From positions 31,325-95,324 of the IMG/VR virus record IMGVR_UViG_3300027573_000023: 64,000 nt of DNA; one strand, 5' to 3'. The stretch comes from a virus. How positions within the stretch are numbered: the stretch's first letter is position 1; every line of letters starts with the position of its first letter. Below the pieces are notes generated by a model. It saw only the letters and a list, made by a program, of their open reading frames with translations, had not been told where the DNA came from and did no database searches. The position numbers were made by a program, and so were the translations under genes. This document shows positions 3,794 to 45,445 of the stretch, piece after piece.

Positions 3794-5859
3794 TGGATTC
3801 AAATACAAATGCAAATAACGCTGCTGGCATTTATGCCAGTGGCTTTGCATTTGGTAGAAATCCCACTCTTGCAGTTTGTTGTACGTACCATATATTTAGA
3901 GCATTAGATTATACTTCAACAACTAGTACTACAAAAAAACCTACTACTTCAACAACTAGTACTAGCTCTAGTACCAGTACCAGTACCAGTACTACATTAG
4001 TACCAACTACTACTACAACAACCACTATATTAATAACCACTTCTACAACTACTACAGTACCAACAACTAGTACTACCACTACACCTATACCAACAACAAC
4101 TACAACAACTACTATAGCACCAACTACTACAACCACATCATCATCAACATCTACTACAACTAGTTCATCTACAACTACAACAACTACTACTATAGCACCT
4201 ACAACAACTACAACCACAACTGTACCACCTACTACTACTAGTACTACAACTCCTATACCTACCACCACTACTACTACCACTGTTGCTCCTACTACTACAA
4301 CAACAACTATAGCTCCAACAACAACTACAACAACCACACCTGTACCTACAACAACTACAACTACAACTCCAGAACCTACAACAACTACTACTACTACTCC
4401 TGCGCCTACTACTACAACAACTACAACTGGTTTTCCATTTAATCTTTCTGTAGGTAATGCTTCACCAACTACTACATGTACTTTTACTACGTATCCAAAT
4501 CTAAGATATTCACGTACTGCACTTCCATTGATAAGTGGACAAATAATATATACAAACCCTGCATGTACTACTGTTATGAATGGTGCCGCTAACTATTATA
4601 AAGAACAAATATCTCAAATTGCTTGGAGAGTAGGTAGTGGTGGAGCTCTTTCCCTTCCTAATGATTGTAATACAACAACAACTACAACTACAGCACCACC
4701 TACCACAACAACTACAACTACAGCACCTGTTTCAACTACTACAACTACTACAACACTAATTCTATTTACTTTCTTACCAGAAGATCCTAATCTTACTTAT
4801 TTGGCAAGCAGAATTTATGATCCAATTGCAGACGTAACTTATATTTATGGAAACTTTACAGGATATAAAGATGCTGGAGTAGATAATTTTGATACAGTTC
4901 GTTTAATAAAACTAGATACTGATTTACATGTACCTGGTGGTTTTGATACTGGTACTGGATTTAATAGTGATACTGACTTATTTTCTCAAATATTAATTCA
5001 TCCTGCTGATGGTAAACTAATTGTAACAGGAGCCTTTAGTAGTTATAATGGTAGTGGTATATCAGGAATTGCTAAAATAGATGTAGATGGAACAGTTGAT
5101 GGTCCTTTTAATGCTGGAGGAACAGGATTTGGTGGTTTTCCTGGAAAAATGGATATTGGTTATGATGGTACAATTCTTGTTCCAGGAAGTTTTGGCTCTT
5201 ATAATGGTAATGCTTATCAAAACCTAATAGCAATAGACCCTTCTAGTGGATTACCTACTAGTGCTGTTTTTGGAGTACTTGATGGTGTTACATTTAGTAT
5301 AAGTGCTTCTAGAACTTTTGGAGATACTTATATGATTGTTACAGGATCTTTTGATAGTTATTATAGTAATTTTGGTTATGGTGGAATAAATAAAATAGAT
5401 TATATTACTGGATTTTCAGATAGCTCTTTTAACTCTGGTGGAGATGGTTTTGCTCCTCTTGCTGCTGGTACTCCAAATTTTGTAGTAAGACTTAATGAAG
5501 ACACTGATGGATCAATATATGTAGCAGGAAGTTTCACTACATACAATGGTGTTTCTGAACCTCGTATTATAAAATTAGATTCATTAGGGGCTAAAGTGGC
5601 TGCTGCTGTTTTTGATGCAGGAGGTGGGTTTAATCAAGCAGTGACTAATATTGAAGTTATCTGGGATAATAGACTCTTTATAGAGGGGCAATTTTCCAAT
5701 TATAATGGTACAGCATGCTATGGTTTGGTTATATTAAATTCTGATGGTACAATACTATATGCAGCACCTGTACCTTATTATACTCCTTTTACAGTAGGAG
5801 ACAATGTTTATGGTAGAACAGATGATGAAGGTTTACACATTATATTTACAAAACCATAA
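3793..5859 (+). CDS. Mucin-like Pro/Thr-rich protein with C-terminal delta-60-repeat beta-propeller
   Basis: About 170 aa of PTTTTTT repeats, a small Cys domain, a second Thr tract, then repeats of the type IYVAGSFTTYNG...RIIKL. Confidence 0.8.
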   Translation: MDSNTNANNAAGIYASGFAFGRNPTLAVCCTYHIFRALDYTSTTSTTKKPTTSTTSTSSSTSTSTSTTLVPTTTTTTTILITTSTTTTVPTTSTTTTPIPTTTTTTTIAPTTTTTSSSTSTTTSSSTTTTTTTIAPTTTTTTTVPPTTTSTTTPIPTTTTTTTVAPTTTTTTIAPTTTTTTTPVPTTTTTTTPEPTTTTTTTPAPTTTTTTTGFPFNLSVGNASPTTTCTFTTYPNLRYSRTALPLISGQIIYTNPACTTVMNGAANYYKEQISQIAWRVGSGGALSLPNDCNTTTTTTTAPPTTTTTTTAPVSTTTTTTTLILFTFLPEDPNLTYLASRIYDPIADVTYIYGNFTGYKDAGVDNFDTVRLIKLDTDLHVPGGFDTGTGFNSDTDLFSQILIHPADGKLIVTGAFSSYNGSGISGIAKIDVDGTVDGPFNAGGTGFGGFPGKMDIGYDGTILVPGSFGSYNGNAYQNLIAIDPSSGLPTSAVFGVLDGVTFSISASRTFGDTYMIVTGSFDSYYSNFGYGGINKIDYITGFSDSSFNSGGDGFAPLAAGTPNFVVRLNEDTDGSIYVAGSFTTYNGVSEPRIIKLDSLGAKVAAAVFDAGGGFNQAVTNIEVIWDNRLFIEGQFSNYNGTACYGLVILNSDGTILYAAPVPYYTPFTVGDNVYGRTDDEGLHIIFTKP
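3913..4428 (+). repeat. Degenerate ACN-codon tandem repeats encoding the Thr tract
   Basis: Runs of ACT/ACA/ACC punctuated by CCT/CCA; a second tract lies at about 4672-4755. Confidence 0.9.
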
Positions 5860-6143
5860 TGGAAACAGTTAAGAAATTTTTTCCTGCAGTGCTACCAGAG
5901 AATGAAGCTGTTTACTTTGCTTCACTAAAGGGAGTGATTGAATCTGTTGATGAACTAAGCGCACTGGAAGTAGTGAAGACACCTAAAGCTTTTAACTTTA
6001 GACTCATACCAAGCTTACCTAAATATACTAACATGCTTATAGAAGAACTCATTAAGTTTCATAATATAATTGGTGTTAGATTAGATATGAGTAAGAGTAT
6101 TAAAACTTCTGGCACTATTACTTTCGTAATTACTTTTAATTAA
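5859..6143 (+). CDS. Hypothetical protein
   Basis: 94-aa ORF coupled to the upstream stop (TAATG). Confidence 0.7.
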   Translation: METVKKFFPAVLPENEAVYFASLKGVIESVDELSALEVVKTPKAFNFRLIPSLPKYTNMLIEELIKFHNIIGVRLDMSKSIKTSGTITFVITFN

Positions 6144-6144
6144 T

Positions 6145-6152
6145 TAACTTTG
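6145..6152 (+). promoter_or_regulatory. Bacteroidota-type -7 promoter box (TAACTTTG)
   Basis: Matches TAnnTTTG, intergenic, 30 nt before the ATG at 6182. Confidence 0.5.
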
Positions 6153-6181
6153 TTAATTAAAAACCTTTAAAACCAACAACT

Positions 6182-6499
6182 ATGGCAACGTATGATCCAA
6201 ACAAGACGTACACATGGAGTCCTGAAACAAAGTTTCTGATCTCTGGGCAAGACTTTAGTCTTATGTTACACGCTGTTAGAGGGATTCTCTCTACAAAAGA
6301 AGCGACCAACACAATTTTGTGTTATGAATTGAATAAAAAAATTGAGGCAATGCTAAGCGATGCTGTGACTGAAGGAAAGGTAATAGAAACCCCTCCTATG
6401 GAAGCAATGCAAGGTGGTGTTGAACCACAAGAGGTAACAGAAGCAACAGATTTAAAGTTACCAAAAGAAAAATTTAGAAAACCCACTGTGGTAAAGTAA
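6182..6499 (+). CDS. Hypothetical protein
   Basis: 105-aa ORF following a promoter-like box. Confidence 0.7.
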   Translation: MATYDPNKTYTWSPETKFLISGQDFSLMLHAVRGILSTKEATNTILCYELNKKIEAMLSDAVTEGKVIETPPMEAMQGGVEPQEVTEATDLKLPKEKFRKPTVVK

Positions 6500-6500
6500 A

Positions 6501-6674
6501 ATGAAACAAGTCCCCAAGGCTAAGGGAGGGTGGATAGCCAAAGCTGCAGCCTCTATTAAACGTAGAGGCACTAAAGGAAAGTGTACTCCTATAACCAAAC
6601 CAGGTTGTACAGGACGTGCTAAATCACTCGCCCTTACTTTTAAGAAAATAGCCAGAAAGAGAAAAAAGAAATGA
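6501..6674 (+). CDS. 57-aa Lys/Arg-rich protein (not in ORF track)
   Basis: MKQVPKAKGGWIAKAAASIKRRGTKGKCTPITKPGCTGRAKSLALTFKKIARKRKKK*; fills the gap and overlaps the next gene at ATGA. Confidence 0.75.
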   Translation: MKQVPKAKGGWIAKAAASIKRRGTKGKCTPITKPGCTGRAKSLALTFKKIARKRKKK

Positions 6675-7168
6675 CAAAGAGTACCAACCCTAGAAATGCA
6701 GTTAGAAGAGCTAAACTTAGAGGAGTTACAGTATCTGAACTTATTCTTATCGAGCAAGAAGAACAGATAAAAATAGATCAAGGATTTAAATGGTGTAATT
6801 CTTGTAAAGCCTGGCTTTTAAATTCAGAGTTTGGAAAAGCTCATTCATATTGTAAGCAATGTTGTAGAGATAGAAGTAATGCAAAATATGATCTCTCTAA
6901 ACAAAGAGAAAGAATTTTACAAAAGAACTTTGGTATTACAAGTTTAGAATACAATCTAATGTTGGCTGATCAGAATCACAGTTGTTATATCTGTCACATA
7001 CATGAAGATAAATTAGATAGATCTCTTGCTGTAGATCATGATCACAGCACAGGAAAAGTTAGAGGACTTCTTTGTGGAACTTGTAACAGATTTCTTGGTC
7101 AGATTAATGATGATGTACATACAGCTGAGAGGCTTGTAGAGTACTTAAAACAACATCAAAACCTTTAA
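6671..7168 (+). CDS. Endonuclease VII-family (His-Me finger) nuclease, probably a free-standing homing endonuclease
   Basis: FGIT..EY..ML..Q...CYIC...LAVDHDH.TGKVRGLLC..CN..LG, with N-terminal CxxC pairs. Confidence 0.9.
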   Translation: MTKSTNPRNAVRRAKLRGVTVSELILIEQEEQIKIDQGFKWCNSCKAWLLNSEFGKAHSYCKQCCRDRSNAKYDLSKQRERILQKNFGITSLEYNLMLADQNHSCYICHIHEDKLDRSLAVDHDHSTGKVRGLLCGTCNRFLGQINDDVHTAERLVEYLKQHQNL

Positions 7169-7195
7169 AAAAATTGCTAAAAAAAGAAAAGGAAA

Positions 7196-7441
7196 ATGAA
7201 AAAAGTTGTTAAGAAAGCACAGAATGGTGCTAAGGCTACTAAAGATAGTACAGACTATTTTAATAAAGAAGCAAAGAAGAATTTTCAAAAAGCTTCTGAT
7301 AGATATGGTTCACCAAGTCTTTCTAAGGAAGCCAGTAAATATAGTGACAAAGCTATATCAGCACAAAAATCTTCTTTAAGACAATCTAATAAAGGTAAAC
7401 CAGGCTATGATAAGAATGGTTATCCTATTAAAAAGAAATAA
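7196..7441 (+). CDS. Small Lys-rich protein (MKKxxKAxxG family)
   Basis: Starts MKKVVKKAQNG. Confidence 0.75.
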   Translation: MKKVVKKAQNGAKATKDSTDYFNKEAKKNFQKASDRYGSPSLSKEASKYSDKAISAQKSSLRQSNKGKPGYDKNGYPIKKK

Positions 7442-7477
7442 AACTTTTAAAAAAATTGCACGTAACAGAAAGAAAAA

Positions 7478-7600
7478 ATGAAAGAGAAACCTAAATCAAA
7501 GAAAAAGAATACAGCTCCTGCGAGAGATGTGATTCCTGGGTATAGATTACCCACAATGAATGCTAAAAATGGTAGGAGATTAACCACTAAAAATAAGTAA
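7478..7600 (+). CDS. 40-aa Lys-rich protein (not in ORF track)
   Basis: MKEKPKSKKKNTAPARDVIPGYRLPTMNAKNGRRLTTKNK*; contains AKNG. Confidence 0.6.
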   Translation: MKEKPKSKKKNTAPARDVIPGYRLPTMNAKNGRRLTTKNK

Positions 7601-7602
7601 TC

Positions 7603-7932
7603 ATGAAGAAGATTAAGAAAGCTCAAGCTGGAACTAAAGAAACAGCAGCAGAACATGATGCTAAGGCAGCTGCATTCTGGAAAGGAGTTGGTAAAAAAGT
7701 GGGTGATACTAAATTAAAAGATGTTCCAGGAAAAACTGTGAAAGTTGTTAAAAATGTAGGTAGTAAATTAATAAATTCAGGTAAATTGGGAGAAGCAGCT
7801 GAAACTACAGCCAATCTTGTTACTGCAGGATACTATGGAAAAGCAAAAAGAGCTATGGGAATTAAAAAGAGTGGAGGTAAAATGTCCTATAAAGCTGGTG
7901 GTAAAATGAAAAAATGTAAAGGAGGTTGTTGA
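7603..7932 (+). CDS. Small Lys-rich protein (MKKIKKAQAG...KKSGGK)
   Basis: Repeated KxGG motifs at the C-terminus. Confidence 0.75.
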   Translation: MKKIKKAQAGTKETAAEHDAKAAAFWKGVGKKVGDTKLKDVPGKTVKVVKNVGSKLINSGKLGEAAETTANLVTAGYYGKAKRAMGIKKSGGKMSYKAGGKMKKCKGGC

Positions 7933-7936
7933 TATC

Positions 7937-8026
7937 ATGAAAGAGCTACTCACATTGCTATTCTTTCTTGTTGTAGCAGGTGCAGCATTGTATTTTTTTA
8001 ACCATAAAAACGATGATGAGAAATGA
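7937..8026 (+). CDS. 29-aa single-TM peptide
   Basis: MKELLTLLFFLVVAGAALYFFNHKNDDEK*; ATGA overlap with the next gene. Confidence 0.5.
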   Translation: MKELLTLLFFLVVAGAALYFFNHKNDDEK

Positions 8027-8361
8027 AAAAGATTAAGAAAGCCAAAAATGGTGATAAAGTTGTAAGAAAAACAGTTGTTGATAAAACTGCTGCAAGAAAA
8101 CCTAATGCCCCTCTAGTCTTGAAGAGAGAGAATGAAGCAGATCTTACAGTACAAAGAAATGCAGCCAGAACTCATGACTATCACAGACAGTTAGATGTTG
8201 CTGCAGCAATGAAGTATCCTAAAGATGCAGACATGATGATGAAAGCTGCCAGAACTGATGATAGTTTAGCTACTGATGCTAAAAGAAAAGCTAGAGCACT
8301 TAAAGTTAAACCTAGATTTCCACAAAAAAAATCAGGTGGTAAAGTTAATAAAAAGAAATAA
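8023..8361 (+). CDS. Small Lys-rich protein (MKKIKKAKNG...KKSGGK)
   Basis: Same terminal motifs as 7603..7932. Confidence 0.75.
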   Translation: MKKIKKAKNGDKVVRKTVVDKTAARKPNAPLVLKRENEADLTVQRNAARTHDYHRQLDVAAAMKYPKDADMMMKAARTDDSLATDAKRKARALKVKPRFPQKKSGGKVNKKK

Positions 8362-8498
8362 TGCAATCAGGTAAACCTAAAAAAGCTCCTAAAGTTTCCA
8401 AGTATGACTTGGATAAGAACTATATGAAGGAGCATGATAAAAATGTAAAGAAAAAAAATCCTATGTCTCCTATGAGTAAGAAGAGACTATCAAAATAA
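8361..8498 (+). CDS. 45-aa Lys-rich protein
   Basis: MQSGKPKKAPKVSK...KKRLSK*; TAATG coupling; last gene before the terminator. Confidence 0.6.
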   Translation: MQSGKPKKAPKVSKYDLDKNYMKEHDKNVKKKNPMSPMSKKRLSK

Positions 8499-8540
8499 AT
8501 TCTGTGTTTCGTGTTTTTCATGCTTTGAGTGTTTAAGAAG

Positions 8541-8569
8541 AAAAAGCCAGCTTAATTGCTGGCTTTTTT
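8541..8569. terminator. Bidirectional intrinsic terminator between convergent modules
   Basis: AAAAAGCCAGC-TTAATT-GCTGGCTTTTTT. Confidence 0.9.
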
Positions 8570-29678: not shown

Positions 29679-31682
29679 TTATTTAGCTTCTCCCCAACTG
29701 TTTCCTATGTTGGCATCAGCTTTAATTGTTAAGTTAGTTAAATAGTGATTTCCTGCTTGTAGCATTGCTACTTCTACTGCATTTCTAGCTTGTTCTTCAA
29801 AACCTTCTATAACTTCAACGACTAATTCATCATGAACAGAATTACAAATTTTTACTATCCATTGAAGTTCGTTATCAACAATCCATTCAAATAATAGTGC
29901 TCCTGCCAACTTAATTTGGTGGGCGCCCCTAGTTTGAACTGGATTGTTGAGGCAGAGTCTGAGGTATTCTGAGCGCAGTTTGAAGTACTTAGAGACGAAT
30001 TTCTTCTTTTCCTTGTAAAGTTCAACGCTTGCTGGAAATTGTAACTCATATTTGTTACCCTTCTCTTTCTCCTCCTGTAGTTTTTTATAATCATTTTTGC
30101 CAATTTTATACTTAGTCCACTCATCCCTTGTGATTGCATCTGTTTTTGCTTTAGCGTCTAAAAATTCATCATAATAAGGAAGCTTAAGCCTCCAACCATC
30201 AACTGACTCAATATAGCCAACTTTAATAGCTTTGTTCAGTACTTTTTCTCCCCAGGTATACATACCTGCATGTAAATTCTTGAAAGCATCTTCAATTTCT
30301 TGTGCTCTCTTCATAGGAATACCCTCTTTCTGGTGTATGGTAAAAGCATTACCTCCATATTGGAAGGCAAATCTTGGTGATTTAGCAGCCTGTCTTTTAT
30401 CCTTATACTCTTTCTTGATGGTTTCATCATCAAAATTTTCAAGTTCAGGAAATAACACTCTTGCAAAAGCACAATGCAAATCACTGTCTTCTGTAACAGC
30501 CAGAGTCATAGCTTCATCTCCTGATAAATCAGCAGCAATAACAGTTTCCTGTCCACTATAATCACAAACTATCATTACGTGGCCTGGGTTGGCCACAAAG
30601 CAATCTCTTGTTTCATGGTCCTTAGGAAAATTTAGAAAATTTATGTGTCCCTGTCTGGTAGATAGTCTTGCTGTATCAACCATTGGGTTGAAATTGGTAT
30701 AAATACGCTCATCTTCAATCTTCTGATATACACCATCTCCAAATGTAGTGACACGATGTGTAGCATTTTGATATTTAAGCCACATTTCTACAAATTCATG
30801 TTTTGATTTGCTTATAACATCAGCATTAATACTGTCCTTATCATACTTATCCTTGGTAGGAATACCAAAAGCATTGAATACTTTCAGCATTTGCTTTGGA
30901 GAAGTAACCTCAACAGTAATTCTCTTGATATCATCAAACATATCATACTGTCTATTGGCAAATTGTGGAAGATTATCATAAATATAGTCCTCAATTGTTC
31001 TTTTCCATTCAAAAGAATCAATTATATCCTGATTCATTTTGGCTTTCCAATGTTTGCTTGAGATAGGAAGACCACACTGCTCCATGTAGGCCAACGCTTT
31101 CACATATCTGCAATGTAGCATATAGGTAGCAGTCTGACCATTCTCTCTGATTTTCTGATACATAGCCTCTTCTAATTCAAGAAGTCTGTCTACATCATTG
31201 AATGAATAATCTATTGTGCTCTGTTGTGAAAGTTTTACTATATGAATATTCTTTTGCTCTGTCTTATCGTAAACAACTCCAAGCTCTCTAAACATTACAG
31301 CACCAAAATCATGTCTGATTGCAAGTTCTCCATTATACAGTATTTTACTTGCAAGCATTGTATCTCTTACCTCTACAGGCCAGAAATCATACTTATAAAA
31401 GAAACCTAAATCAAATTGAATATTGTGTCCTACTAAGACTTTACCTTGTATATATGGTATAAGATCTTCAAAATAATAATTGTTATCATACATTACTATG
31501 ATATAGTTATTCTCTCCTGTTCCTATTTGCACACAAAATATTTCATTGTGTCTTGCTGTCAATCCTGTAGTTTCAGTATCTATTGCAATCTTGTTTGGAA
31601 GTATCATATCCTCAAGATTGCAATAGTTGTACTCTCCTATTTTATCAAAGAACTCAGGATGTTTTGTTATTATATAATTCAT
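29679..31682 (-). CDS. polA: DNA polymerase family A with 3'-5' exonuclease
   Basis: DTETTG, HN..FD, TARLS, DYSGQE, R..AK...F...YG, NNPVQ, VHDE. Confidence 0.95.
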   Translation of the reverse strand: MNYIITKHPEFFDKIGEYNYCNLEDMILPNKIAIDTETTGLTARHNEIFCVQIGTGENNYIIVMYDNNYYFEDLIPYIQGKVLVGHNIQFDLGFFYKYDFWPVEVRDTMLASKILYNGELAIRHDFGAVMFRELGVVYDKTEQKNIHIVKLSQQSTIDYSFNDVDRLLELEEAMYQKIRENGQTATYMLHCRYVKALAYMEQCGLPISSKHWKAKMNQDIIDSFEWKRTIEDYIYDNLPQFANRQYDMFDDIKRITVEVTSPKQMLKVFNAFGIPTKDKYDKDSINADVISKSKHEFVEMWLKYQNATHRVTTFGDGVYQKIEDERIYTNFNPMVDTARLSTRQGHINFLNFPKDHETRDCFVANPGHVMIVCDYSGQETVIAADLSGDEAMTLAVTEDSDLHCAFARVLFPELENFDDETIKKEYKDKRQAAKSPRFAFQYGGNAFTIHQKEGIPMKRAQEIEDAFKNLHAGMYTWGEKVLNKAIKVGYIESVDGWRLKLPYYDEFLDAKAKTDAITRDEWTKYKIGKNDYKKLQEEKEKGNKYELQFPASVELYKEKKKFVSKYFKLRSEYLRLCLNNPVQTRGAHQIKLAGALLFEWIVDNELQWIVKICNSVHDELVVEVIEGFEEQARNAVEVAMLQAGNHYLTNLTIKADANIGNSWGEAK

Positions 31683-43066: not shown

Positions 43067-45445
43067 TTATTCTTTGATTATGCGCAGAGTTCTTTGCTCT
43101 GTTGCCTGATTAAGAATGATGTTATACATTCCTGTAGAATAATCTCTTCCAAACAAAGGAGAGTTAAATTCATCAGGCGTAATTGTTCTGGTCTCAACAG
43201 AACGTCCTAGAACATCATAGATGCTCATATTAATAGGATTGATAAGATTAGTACTTCTTACTGAGAAAGTGCTTCCAAATGGATTAGGATACACTGTGAA
43301 TGTAGACGAAGGCGCTACATTCCCTGTAGCATTAACCCCCTTTTGTGAACTTCTTATTGAAGTACAAGTAGATTGTGTTGTATTAGGTGATTTCACAACA
43401 TCACAATGTCTTCCAGCACCATTTTCATTGTTGTATCTGTCTAATAAAGAACCAGCTGCACCACATGTACCATTAGCAAAAGCTGCATTAACTAAAGCTT
43501 GTAAATCAGCTATAGTTGCAACTGAATAATCTAAAGTACCATCACAGATGTTTAGCAATGCTGCTACAGATTGTCTAGCTAAGTTGTTACAATCACCACC
43601 ACCTAAATTCAATGCTTGAAGCAATGTTAAACCAGCAGGAAGTGTTGAACCAGTGAATACAGAATTATATGGTGTACAAGTTGTATAACAATCCCAAGCT
43701 AATGTATGGTTTTTCCAGTATCCTAAAGTACAACCATTAGGTTGTGCACAAGATAAAACAAGAACAGTTTGACTGCAAGAAGCTGATGTGTTATCACACT
43801 CATCTTCAGCTGTCCAAGATTGTGTATGAGATACACTTCCATCAGGGTTATTTACAACTACTAAAGCACCTGGAATTATATCAATATCTCCAGGAGCAGT
43901 ACAATTGTCTGTTGCTGTTGGAGTATCAAATACAACTGCTGCATCACAAGCAACCTCTTTATTAGGTAAACAATTGATAACTGGAGCAGTAGTATCTATT
44001 CTGTATGTAAATACCTGATCACAAGTATCAAATAGACCACACGAATTTTCAACTCTATAAGTACGAGTAAGCGTTAGTGCGCAATCAGTACCAGTAACTA
44101 CATCACTAGATGTATATGGTAAAGTAGGGCAATCTGAATCAACTGTAGGAGCTGTTGGATCAGGAATGGTTGGGTTACAACCCAATGCTCCACCTGGAGC
44201 ACATGTAATAACTGGAGGAACAGCAGCAAGAATTTGAATACGTCTTACAAAAGGAATATCTGAAATACATCTGTCTGCAATTCTACCACTAATAACAATA
44301 GGTCCTTCACATAAAGAAGTTATAACAACAGGATCAAATGTTAATTGTGCAAGACAACCACCAGTATAACCAAATTCTGTTTTGTAAGCAGCAATAATTC
44401 CTAAAAGAGTACCTTCATCCACAATATCACATGCTGCAACTTCTCTGTCAGCAGGTAAAGTAGGCTCAATTACAGGAGGAGGAGTAATTGTATATGTTGC
44501 AGTACAAGATTCCTCTTGTTCACATCTGTCTGTTACTACCCATCTTACTGTAATTGCTCCACCACATAAATCAGGAGCTTGAATTGGTGCTCCAGGAATA
44601 GTATTAACAATTATTGGAGGAAAACCACCTGAAGTAGTAAATGAATCTAACCAATTTTGAAAATGTGCATCAAGAGCAGTTTGATCTGCAAACTGACATG
44701 AAGGGTGTGATAAAGTAAGAGGACAGTTTGTGATAATTGGGTCTGGTGGTACAGGAGCACCATTAATTACAGGAGAAGTAGCAGTACATCCATCACAGTC
44801 TGTAATTCTGATTACATAATTCTGTGGAATTACGCCAGGAAAGCTACCTGTAGTATTTGTTGCTACTACTACTCCACCAGGAGAGGTAACTAAATTATAG
44901 GTGTATTGTCCACAACCACCAGGGAGACTAGGGAATTGAACAATTTGATCTGATGTTCCTAATTTAGTACCAGTTAATCCAGGAGTAATTGATACAGTAG
45001 TGAGATCATTAGGACAATCTACAGGAGTAGCACTACCTTGTATAACTAAAACTTTAGTAAATACTGAAGCAGCACATCCTGTACCTGCTGGATCACCTGG
45101 TAGAGACATTCTAACTTCAGTAGAACCAGATAAAGGTCCTAAAAGTACAGCTACGCTATTAAACAAACCAGAAGAAACAGTAGTAGTAGAAGTTAGGGAA
45201 TTGTTGTTAACAAATCTAGCACCACCAGTACTATCTCCTGTAATAGTCCAAGTTAAGGTTGTACCATTATCTAAAAGAACACTTGCTGTAGTGTAGACAA
45301 TGAGGTTGCCAGGTCCAGCACAGACAAATCTAGGTTCAGCACTTGCATTACACTGTGCAGACAAATCATTCGTGCCCAATAACGTCACGACTAACAGAAA
45401 TAGTAGGGCCAATCTTTGGACACTACAACGTAGAATTTTTTTCAT
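43067..45445 (-). CDS. Secreted Cys-rich HYR/SprB-like repeat protein with type A T9SS sorting domain
   Basis: Signal peptide ending LSA|Q; repeats such as DTTAPVINC...PTATDNC; GCTLGYWKNH domain; C-terminal VYPNPF...IYDVLGR...GMY.I......RIIKE. Confidence 0.9.
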   Translation of the reverse strand: MKKILRCSVQRLALLFLLVVTLLGTNDLSAQCNASAEPRFVCAGPGNLIVYTTASVLLDNGTTLTWTITGDSTGGARFVNNNSLTSTTTVSSGLFNSVAVLLGPLSGSTEVRMSLPGDPAGTGCAASVFTKVLVIQGSATPVDCPNDLTTVSITPGLTGTKLGTSDQIVQFPSLPGGCGQYTYNLVTSPGGVVVATNTTGSFPGVIPQNYVIRITDCDGCTATSPVINGAPVPPDPIITNCPLTLSHPSCQFADQTALDAHFQNWLDSFTTSGGFPPIIVNTIPGAPIQAPDLCGGAITVRWVVTDRCEQEESCTATYTITPPPVIEPTLPADREVAACDIVDEGTLLGIIAAYKTEFGYTGGCLAQLTFDPVVITSLCEGPIVISGRIADRCISDIPFVRRIQILAAVPPVITCAPGGALGCNPTIPDPTAPTVDSDCPTLPYTSSDVVTGTDCALTLTRTYRVENSCGLFDTCDQVFTYRIDTTAPVINCLPNKEVACDAAVVFDTPTATDNCTAPGDIDIIPGALVVVNNPDGSVSHTQSWTAEDECDNTSASCSQTVLVLSCAQPNGCTLGYWKNHTLAWDCYTTCTPYNSVFTGSTLPAGLTLLQALNLGGGDCNNLARQSVAALLNICDGTLDYSVATIADLQALVNAAFANGTCGAAGSLLDRYNNENGAGRHCDVVKSPNTTQSTCTSIRSSQKGVNATGNVAPSSTFTVYPNPFGSTFSVRSTNLINPINMSIYDVLGRSVETRTITPDEFNSPLFGRDYSTGMYNIILNQATEQRTLRIIKE

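Follow-up and report, generated by a model that had tools for sequence, protein, structure and literature searches.

Endonuclease genes that lie within the end of a protein-coding gene have been described from fungal mitochondria, where mORF gene hybrids occur in atp6 of Allomyces macrogynus and in atp6, atp9, cox2 and nad3 of Glomus (PMC3630166). In these elements the endonuclease ORF is located in the 3' part of the host gene, behind an in-frame C-terminus of foreign origin. The host's native C-terminus has been shifted downstream and matches the allele of a close relative; the inserted piece is divergent. All these features are also found in the 64,000-nucleotide stretch of viral DNA analysed here (the window; positions 31,325 to 95,324 of IMG/VR record IMGVR_UViG_3300027573_000023), in which a gene for a 57-aa basic protein (g57) has an in-frame C-terminus followed by an endonuclease ORF and by the displaced native C-terminus. 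The locus differs from the mORF elements in several respects. It belongs to a phage genome and encodes an Endo VII-motif enzyme, whereas the mORF elements are organellar and encode LAGLIDADG or GIY-YIG enzymes; the duplicated piece is just 13 codons long; within a tightly coupled operon, the displaced end (leftover) supplies both the stop codon of the nuclease and the start codon of the gene that follows; and there is a stack of two leftovers, separated by a gene that does not encode a nuclease. The element in the window works like the mORF elements and is not a member of that group by descent.

Among phages, the free-standing nucleases SegF, SegG, SegB and MobE of T4 (PMC2988022) are likewise encoded by optional genes beside a conserved gene, with co-conversion of the flanks, and in the nrdA/mobE pair the nuclease start codon overlaps the upstream stop, as it does here. 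However, the T4-type genes are placed between intact genes, whereas the gene in the window lies inside a coding end and has left a footprint. In the review of intronless homing (PMC2988022) the strings 'duplicat' and 'remnant' appear nowhere. F-CphI of cyanophage S-PM2 resembles the present nuclease in being a free-standing phage gene product with a DHHRN motif at its C-terminus; with this motif, F-CphI acts as a homing endonuclease (PMC6083498). F-CphI shields its own genome by means of a group I intron in psbA (collaborative homing), whereas the shield here would be the replaced gene end. T7-like phages such as Erwinia phage FE44 (gene 13.5) and Klebsiella phage KN4-1 have optional 'endonuclease VII' genes, the products of which are about 42% identical to the present protein over about 73% of its length. 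These genes too are wedged as optional ORFs between conserved genes, in their case virion genes; in the cultured T7-like phages with homologous genes, no duplication of the upstream gene end was found on the 3' side. Repeats ahead of many small genes are also familiar from T4-type phages, as promoter-early stem-loops that consist of a promoter and a stem-loop. The copies in the window, unlike these, have neither promoter nor hairpin and number only three in the genome. In the literature searched, the coverage of which was partial, no phage report was found of a nuclease gene that enters a coding end with a replacement end and leaves the old one behind. The locus matches the mitochondrial mORF elements in layout (PMC3630166), intronless homing in its proposed mechanism (PMC2988022) and F-CphI in enzyme class (PMC6083498).

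Organization of the array

The record represents a phage. It encodes a P22-like portal, a DNA polymerase of family A and a protein carrying a type IX secretion sorting domain. This domain forms the C-terminus of a 792-aa protein (window 43070-45445, - strand). The host is probably a member of the Bacteroidota, for which the sorting domain is a hint. The array (Table 1) is a single + strand operon that extends from 5859 to 8498 and has a hairpin at its end; no promoter- or terminator-like site was found at the copies or leftovers within it. The closing 45-aa gene is kept in most of the related loci. The g57 family is large and comes from uncultured phages. Pfam, PHROGs, NCBIfam and the protein atlas gave no function for g57 or the Lys-rich genes. 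Neither a nucleotide search with the 2.8-kb region nor a search with the g57 protein matched any cultured phage, so no cultured relative is available. The gene status of the 40-aa ORF is uncertain because relatives, sought in the related loci, were not found.

Table 1. Features of the array and their positions in the window
Feature	Position	Strand	Relatives or match
A94, 94-aa conserved anchor; opens the module	5859..6143	+	74 IMG/VR relatives, used to anchor loci
B105, 105-aa conserved anchor	6182..6499	+	IMG/VR and metagenome relatives define the clade of the window
g57, 57-aa basic protein, intact working copy	6501..6674	+	376 IMG/VR relatives
Copy 1, working (replacement) 3' end; ATGA gives the nuclease start	6636..6674	+	
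Endo VII-motif (DHHRN-type) nuclease gene, 165 aa	6671..7168	+	PF02945, E 4e-24
Leftover 2, displaced non-coding g57 3' end; nuclease stop and next start	7158..7199	+	
K81, 81-aa Lys-rich gene, cargo foreign to the clade	7196..7441	+	None in clade relatives
Leftover 3, original g57 3' end of the clade; overlaps the K81 stop, starts the 40-aa ORF	7440..7481	+	
40-aa ORF begun by leftover 3, putative gene	7478..7600	+	Relatives not found
Rest of array: Lys-rich 109- and 112-aa genes, 29-aa ORF, closing 45-aa gene	7603..8498	+	
Terminator-like hairpin closing the operon	8540..8569	+	

According to the preliminary description, the last 13 codons of the 57-aa gene recur twice as non-coding copies. 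This was confirmed. The three copies (6636-6674, 7161-7199 and 7443-7481) are each 39 nt long and share one 13-codon frame, the first comprising the final 12 codons and the stop codon of g57. They are identical to each other at 30-31 of 39 positions; among all other 39-mers, on both strands of the window, the highest value is 24-25 of 39. A repeat search of the window grouped them as one three-copy family of 45 nt. A degenerate 17-mer of the motif had three matches in the 95,324-bp virus record, all in this array, and none in a reversed control of the record. Since the motif is confined to the three copies, it is not a generic leader; a generic A-rich leader was ruled out by this count and by the background level of identity. 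Every copy closes with ATGA, the ATG of which opens the nuclease gene, K81 and the 40-aa ORF, respectively, just as had been described. The homology of the leftovers begins one codon before copies 2 and 3, at the Lys codons at 7158 and 7440, and the stop codons of the nuclease (7166-7168) and of K81 (7439-7441) lie wholly or partly within the leftovers. The remark that many of the differences are synonymous also holds: the three pairs of copies differ by 5, 6 and 3 synonymous and by 2, 1 and 3 non-synonymous codon changes. When the same number of substitutions was placed randomly, a simple null model, so few amino acid changes without a stop codon were obtained in at most 0.4% of trials. As judged from these codon comparisons, the copies are shown to have diverged under coding constraint. 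Copy 1 is the working 3' end of g57, and copies 2 and 3 are non-coding leftovers.

In the nuclease the Pfam Endonuclease_7 domain spans residues 82-160 of 165 and stops five residues short of the C-terminus. The protein is annotated by PHROGs as "endonuclease VII". Its CxxC, DHDH, R and CxxC-N elements align with those of T4 Endo VII, and also with Hpy99I, and the DHHRN residues (D40, H41, H43, R54 and N62 in T4 numbering) are present together with the two Cys pairs. Of the relatives with a solved structure, the restriction enzyme Hpy99I ranks first (E 1.5e-6), ahead of T4 Endo VII (2.6e-4). The gene is distributed like a homing gene in being present or absent at one site among close relatives and in belonging to the same cassette in unrelated backgrounds. 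On gene content alone the protein may also be a resolvase, because the phage genome is about 75% complete and just this one Endo VII-type gene was found in it.

Comparison with related loci

Approximately 130 related loci, about 80 from IMG/VR and 52 from metagenomes, were collected with the 94-aa and 105-aa genes as anchors. Small basic ORFs were labelled by motifs, single-linkage clustering having merged all of them into one cluster. The module always has the same order, namely the 94-aa gene, the 105-aa gene, variable small Lys-rich genes (usually including g57) and the closing gene. The preliminary description had proposed that the locus be compared across relatives, and loci with zero, one, two and three copies, with different inserts, were found. 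A single intact g57 without a leftover is present in the one-copy relatives from the clade of the window (L173, L174, L178 and L179). Two-copy loci, with one leftover, are L084, L177, L085, L153 and L165-L167; among the loci compared, the window alone has two leftovers. The variable array is wholly absent from L086 and L092, in which the closing gene directly follows the 94-aa and 105-aa genes (L086:4670-5436); no Lys-rich gene, g57 included, is therefore essential in every member. Gene content varies among relatives, and the motif was not found before unrelated genes. Locus L057 (1834-2200) contains two full-length g57 genes in tandem, 174 nt apart, a genuine duplication of the gene rather than a leftover. 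Among the - strand genes of L086 there is a 218-aa ORF (6851-7507, - strand) whose N-terminus is GIY-YIG-like. Nuclease genes seem to be numerous in the phage genomes of this group.

All close homologues of the nuclease fall into four lineages, represented by the window, L085 (= L091 = L168), L153 (= L164) and L165-L167. In all four the nuclease gene follows g57 through an ATGA-type overlap and is followed immediately by a non-coding copy of the Lys-Thr-Phe-Lys... type, which reaches as far as the next gene's start. The reading frame of the nuclease extends into the leftover and stops there, at a distance that differs by lineage. An occupied and an empty locus, on contigs of one project, could be compared directly. 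Locus L149 is empty, with g57 followed by genes for 203-aa and 236-aa proteins; in the occupied locus L153, g57 is followed by the nuclease gene, the leftover and then the 203-aa and 236-aa genes of the L149 type. To the right, the two loci are 99.8% identical over 1734 nt, beginning exactly at the Lys codon of the leftover (before TFKK). To the left, identity towards the site is 96, 92, 87, 84 and 75%, the body of g57 being 75% identical. The leftover of L153 is identical to the intact end in L149. It follows from the identity on the right and the divergence on the left that the leftover is the recipient's own gene end, and that the working end and the gene body came with the nuclease. This pair is the most direct evidence for the earlier proposal, in which arriving DNA supplies a new 3' end and the old end is shifted downstream. 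Co-conversion of a flank that decays with distance, as in intronless homing, is seen in the same pair (an observational comparison of one pair). A signature of the L153 type has been reported for the Glomus gene hybrids and for atp6 of Allomyces (PMC3630166).

Over 677 nt, the cassettes of L165 and L153, each consisting of the g57 domain, the nuclease gene and the leftover, are 93.6% identical, and the flanks are 72-84% identical. The cassette in the window (6540-7197) is 78% identical to that of L153, and no other DNA can be aligned between these two. The leftovers of L165 and L153 differ, and each resembles the intact alleles of its own background. On the evidence of these alignments, the cassette is shown to move between otherwise unrelated flanks. 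The co-transferred left part is of variable length. In the window the body of g57 is clade-like, with 83-92% nucleotide identity to L173-L179 (first 60 aligned nt) and 63-68% to L153 and L165; in L085 a whole, different g57 paralogue travels with the nuclease.

Copy 3 shares 37 of 39 positions with the intact gene ends in L178 and L179 and 34 of 39 with that in L174; for copy 1 the values with L174, L178 and L179 are 31-32 of 39. Being nearer to the clade alleles than copy 1, copy 3 is therefore the original end of the clade, which agrees with the claim of a displaced old end. As in the mORF elements, the native piece is thus the one nearer to the alleles of relatives, both here and in L153. 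No counterpart of the 81-aa gene was found in the clade relatives; K81-like modules, about 50% identical, are present upstream or downstream of g57 in distant relatives. One history that fits has the 81-aa gene arriving first, with the copy-2 end, and the nuclease later. Alternatively, a single block comprising the nuclease, leftover 2 and the 81-aa gene may have arrived and been rejoined at the broken end of the recipient, which fits a donor in which the nuclease had already homed before the block was transferred. With either history the array, as read from its sequence, is a nested record of at least two events, and the two steps may not both belong to the lineage of the window.

All seven leftovers (two in the window and one each in L153, L165, L085, L084 and L177) begin at the same Lys codon. 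In L084 the leftover is preceded by an HNH gene and a 49-aa g57-type allele; in L177 it is preceded by a g57 allele together with an MPFKS-type gene, the reading frame of which continues into the leftover. The MPFKS-type small gene (L177:5612-5770) is of a kind common near g57 in marine phage contigs; owing to the in-frame fusion, its last 13 residues are a recycled gene end. The fixed right boundary and variable content to the left fit a site-specific break, by whichever nuclease, that would be followed by one-sided repair with the right end protected. Illegitimate repair of this one-sided type is known from intron homing in T4 (PMC2988022). No Endo VII gene adjoins leftover 3 or the leftovers of L084 and L177. 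These three leftovers require that the nuclease worked in trans, has since been lost or was moved further upstream, or else that some other process uses the same site. Within about 20 nt of the junction, the working alleles linked to a nuclease rank among those that differ most from the family consensus (ranks 2, 2 and 11 of 104), which weakly fits self-protection, i.e., a nuclease that would have replaced its own target.

Duplication of the 3' end was found in 11 of 44 distinct pairs of a nuclease-type ORF and its adjacent upstream gene in the related loci, each duplication scoring above every control position. At least five target genes are affected, and the nucleases are of the Endo VII, NUMOD3 and HNH_3/NUMOD4/I-TevI-like types. 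Where intact alleles exist, the leftover matches the common allele and the working end is the divergent one. This layout at several genes and with several nucleases suggests a general way into coding ends without harm to the host gene. In L112 (7376-8060), L157 (2166-2850) and L097 (2042-2470) a NUMOD3-type ORF follows a conserved 67-aa gene and is itself followed by the leftover of that gene (VKPNITFKRYG type). The leftover in L112 and L157 matches intact alleles in nuclease-free loci (L160:7807-8010; L142), and the working end is divergent. At five further loci (L125:3242-3757, L147:985-1587, L085:628-1497, L095:2186-2650 and L130:8059-8502) the tail of a nuclease ORF of the HNH_3/NUMOD4, NUMOD3 or Endo VII type, or the DNA just after it, repeats the last codons of the upstream gene; at some of these the repeat is in frame, so that the leftover is the nuclease's own tail. 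Where g57 is followed by an HNH-type 207-aa gene (L107, L111, L130, L137 and L152), no leftover was seen. The Lys-rich proteins are shuffled modules that start with IKKAQ.G and end near K.GG (window 7196-8361; L142:8964-9614; L160:7997-8416). One and the same module stands alone as an ORF in the window; in L160 it makes up the N-terminal half of a 139-aa protein, and in L142 it lies inside a 216-aa protein.

Proposed mechanism and alternative explanations

The 165-aa Endo VII-motif gene is most probably a homing endonuclease gene of the free-standing type that occupies the 3' end of g57 at the Ala/Lys-Thr-Phe boundary. The mobile unit would carry a substitute g57 end, often with much or all of g57, ahead of the nuclease ORF; because the substitute end is supplied by the unit, g57 would stay intact and would be coupled translationally to the nuclease through ATGA. 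The nuclease would cut nuclease-free g57 alleles near the Ala/Lys-Thr-Phe boundary, a site predicted from the junctions, and the break would be repaired from the donor with long co-conversion to the left and almost none to the right. The last 13 codons of the recipient would end up beyond the nuclease gene as non-coding sequence, the leftover. It would still give the next gene its A-rich leader and ATG, and could act as a short right-hand homology arm in later homing. Where homology on the right is poor, repair may continue into neighbouring genes of the donor and rejoin the broken end, with a new leftover as the result. The outcome in the window would be g57, the nuclease, leftover 2, the foreign 81-aa gene and leftover 3. 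A wider reading, put forward tentatively and rather doubtful at present, is that homing endonucleases are gene-delivery engines, in which one-sided repair at g57 and at least four other genes drags in neighbours, stacks leftovers and builds the Lys-rich array. Through such one-sided repair, neighbours of the donor gene would have been dragged in, namely the 81-aa gene here, the MPFKS-type gene in L177 and the HNH gene with the 49-aa allele in L084.

A rival reading is that modules were exchanged independently of the nuclease, the conserved g57 end serving as a short linker at which related phages recombine, the nuclease being just one of the swapped genes, and crossovers in A-rich DNA, unequal or at microhomologies, being the source of the leftovers. 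Mosaicism in the region is high, with shuffled Lys-rich modules, the inserts are varied, and three of the leftovers (leftover 3 and those of L084 and L177) have no adjoining Endo VII gene. Such exchange is nevertheless unlikely, since it leaves unexplained why a leftover accompanies every copy of this nuclease, why all leftovers start at a single codon, why unrelated nucleases at other genes show the same layout in 11 of 44 pairs, and why identity breaks so sharply on one side only in L153 and L149. Local tandem duplication followed by drift, or replication slippage in A-rich sequence, would import no foreign DNA. It could account for three direct repeats within 850 nt of A-rich DNA, and true whole-gene duplication does occur in L057; but copy 3 is closer to alleles of other genomes (37 of 39) than to copies 1 and 2 (30-31 of 39), the differences are mainly synonymous, and the intervening DNA does not belong to the clade, all of which make this origin very improbable.

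A-rich leaders matter in Bacteroidota, to which the host probably belongs. Each copy supplies the next gene with an ATG and an A-rich leader, and the copies might thus be kept as functional expression cassettes, either as leaders lacking a Shine-Dalgarno sequence with a start codon or as promoters. There are only three of them in 95 kb, however, all in this array and none with a promoter- or terminator-like site, and the leftovers retain the frame, the stop codon and the allele identity of a coding gene end. A role as leader accounts for the tolerance of leftovers but not for their origin, for which it is a most implausible explanation. A homing endonuclease gene in the 3' end of g57 is the preferred reading.

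Biological significance

Free-standing homing endonucleases are thought to shape the mosaicism of phages, but since homing leaves no scar, what they did in the past can usually not be seen. At this locus a 39-nt footprint marks the junction to the codon and separates resident from imported DNA, and footprints that can be stacked give the order of events. The locus also offers a predicted target of about 40 bp for an Endo VII-motif nuclease, with natural alleles predicted to be cut and uncut. The entry of a nuclease gene into coding ends without harm to the host gene parallels the situation in fungal mitochondria. If homing endonucleases do act as gene-delivery engines, the leftovers would be a readable, ordered log of past invasions.
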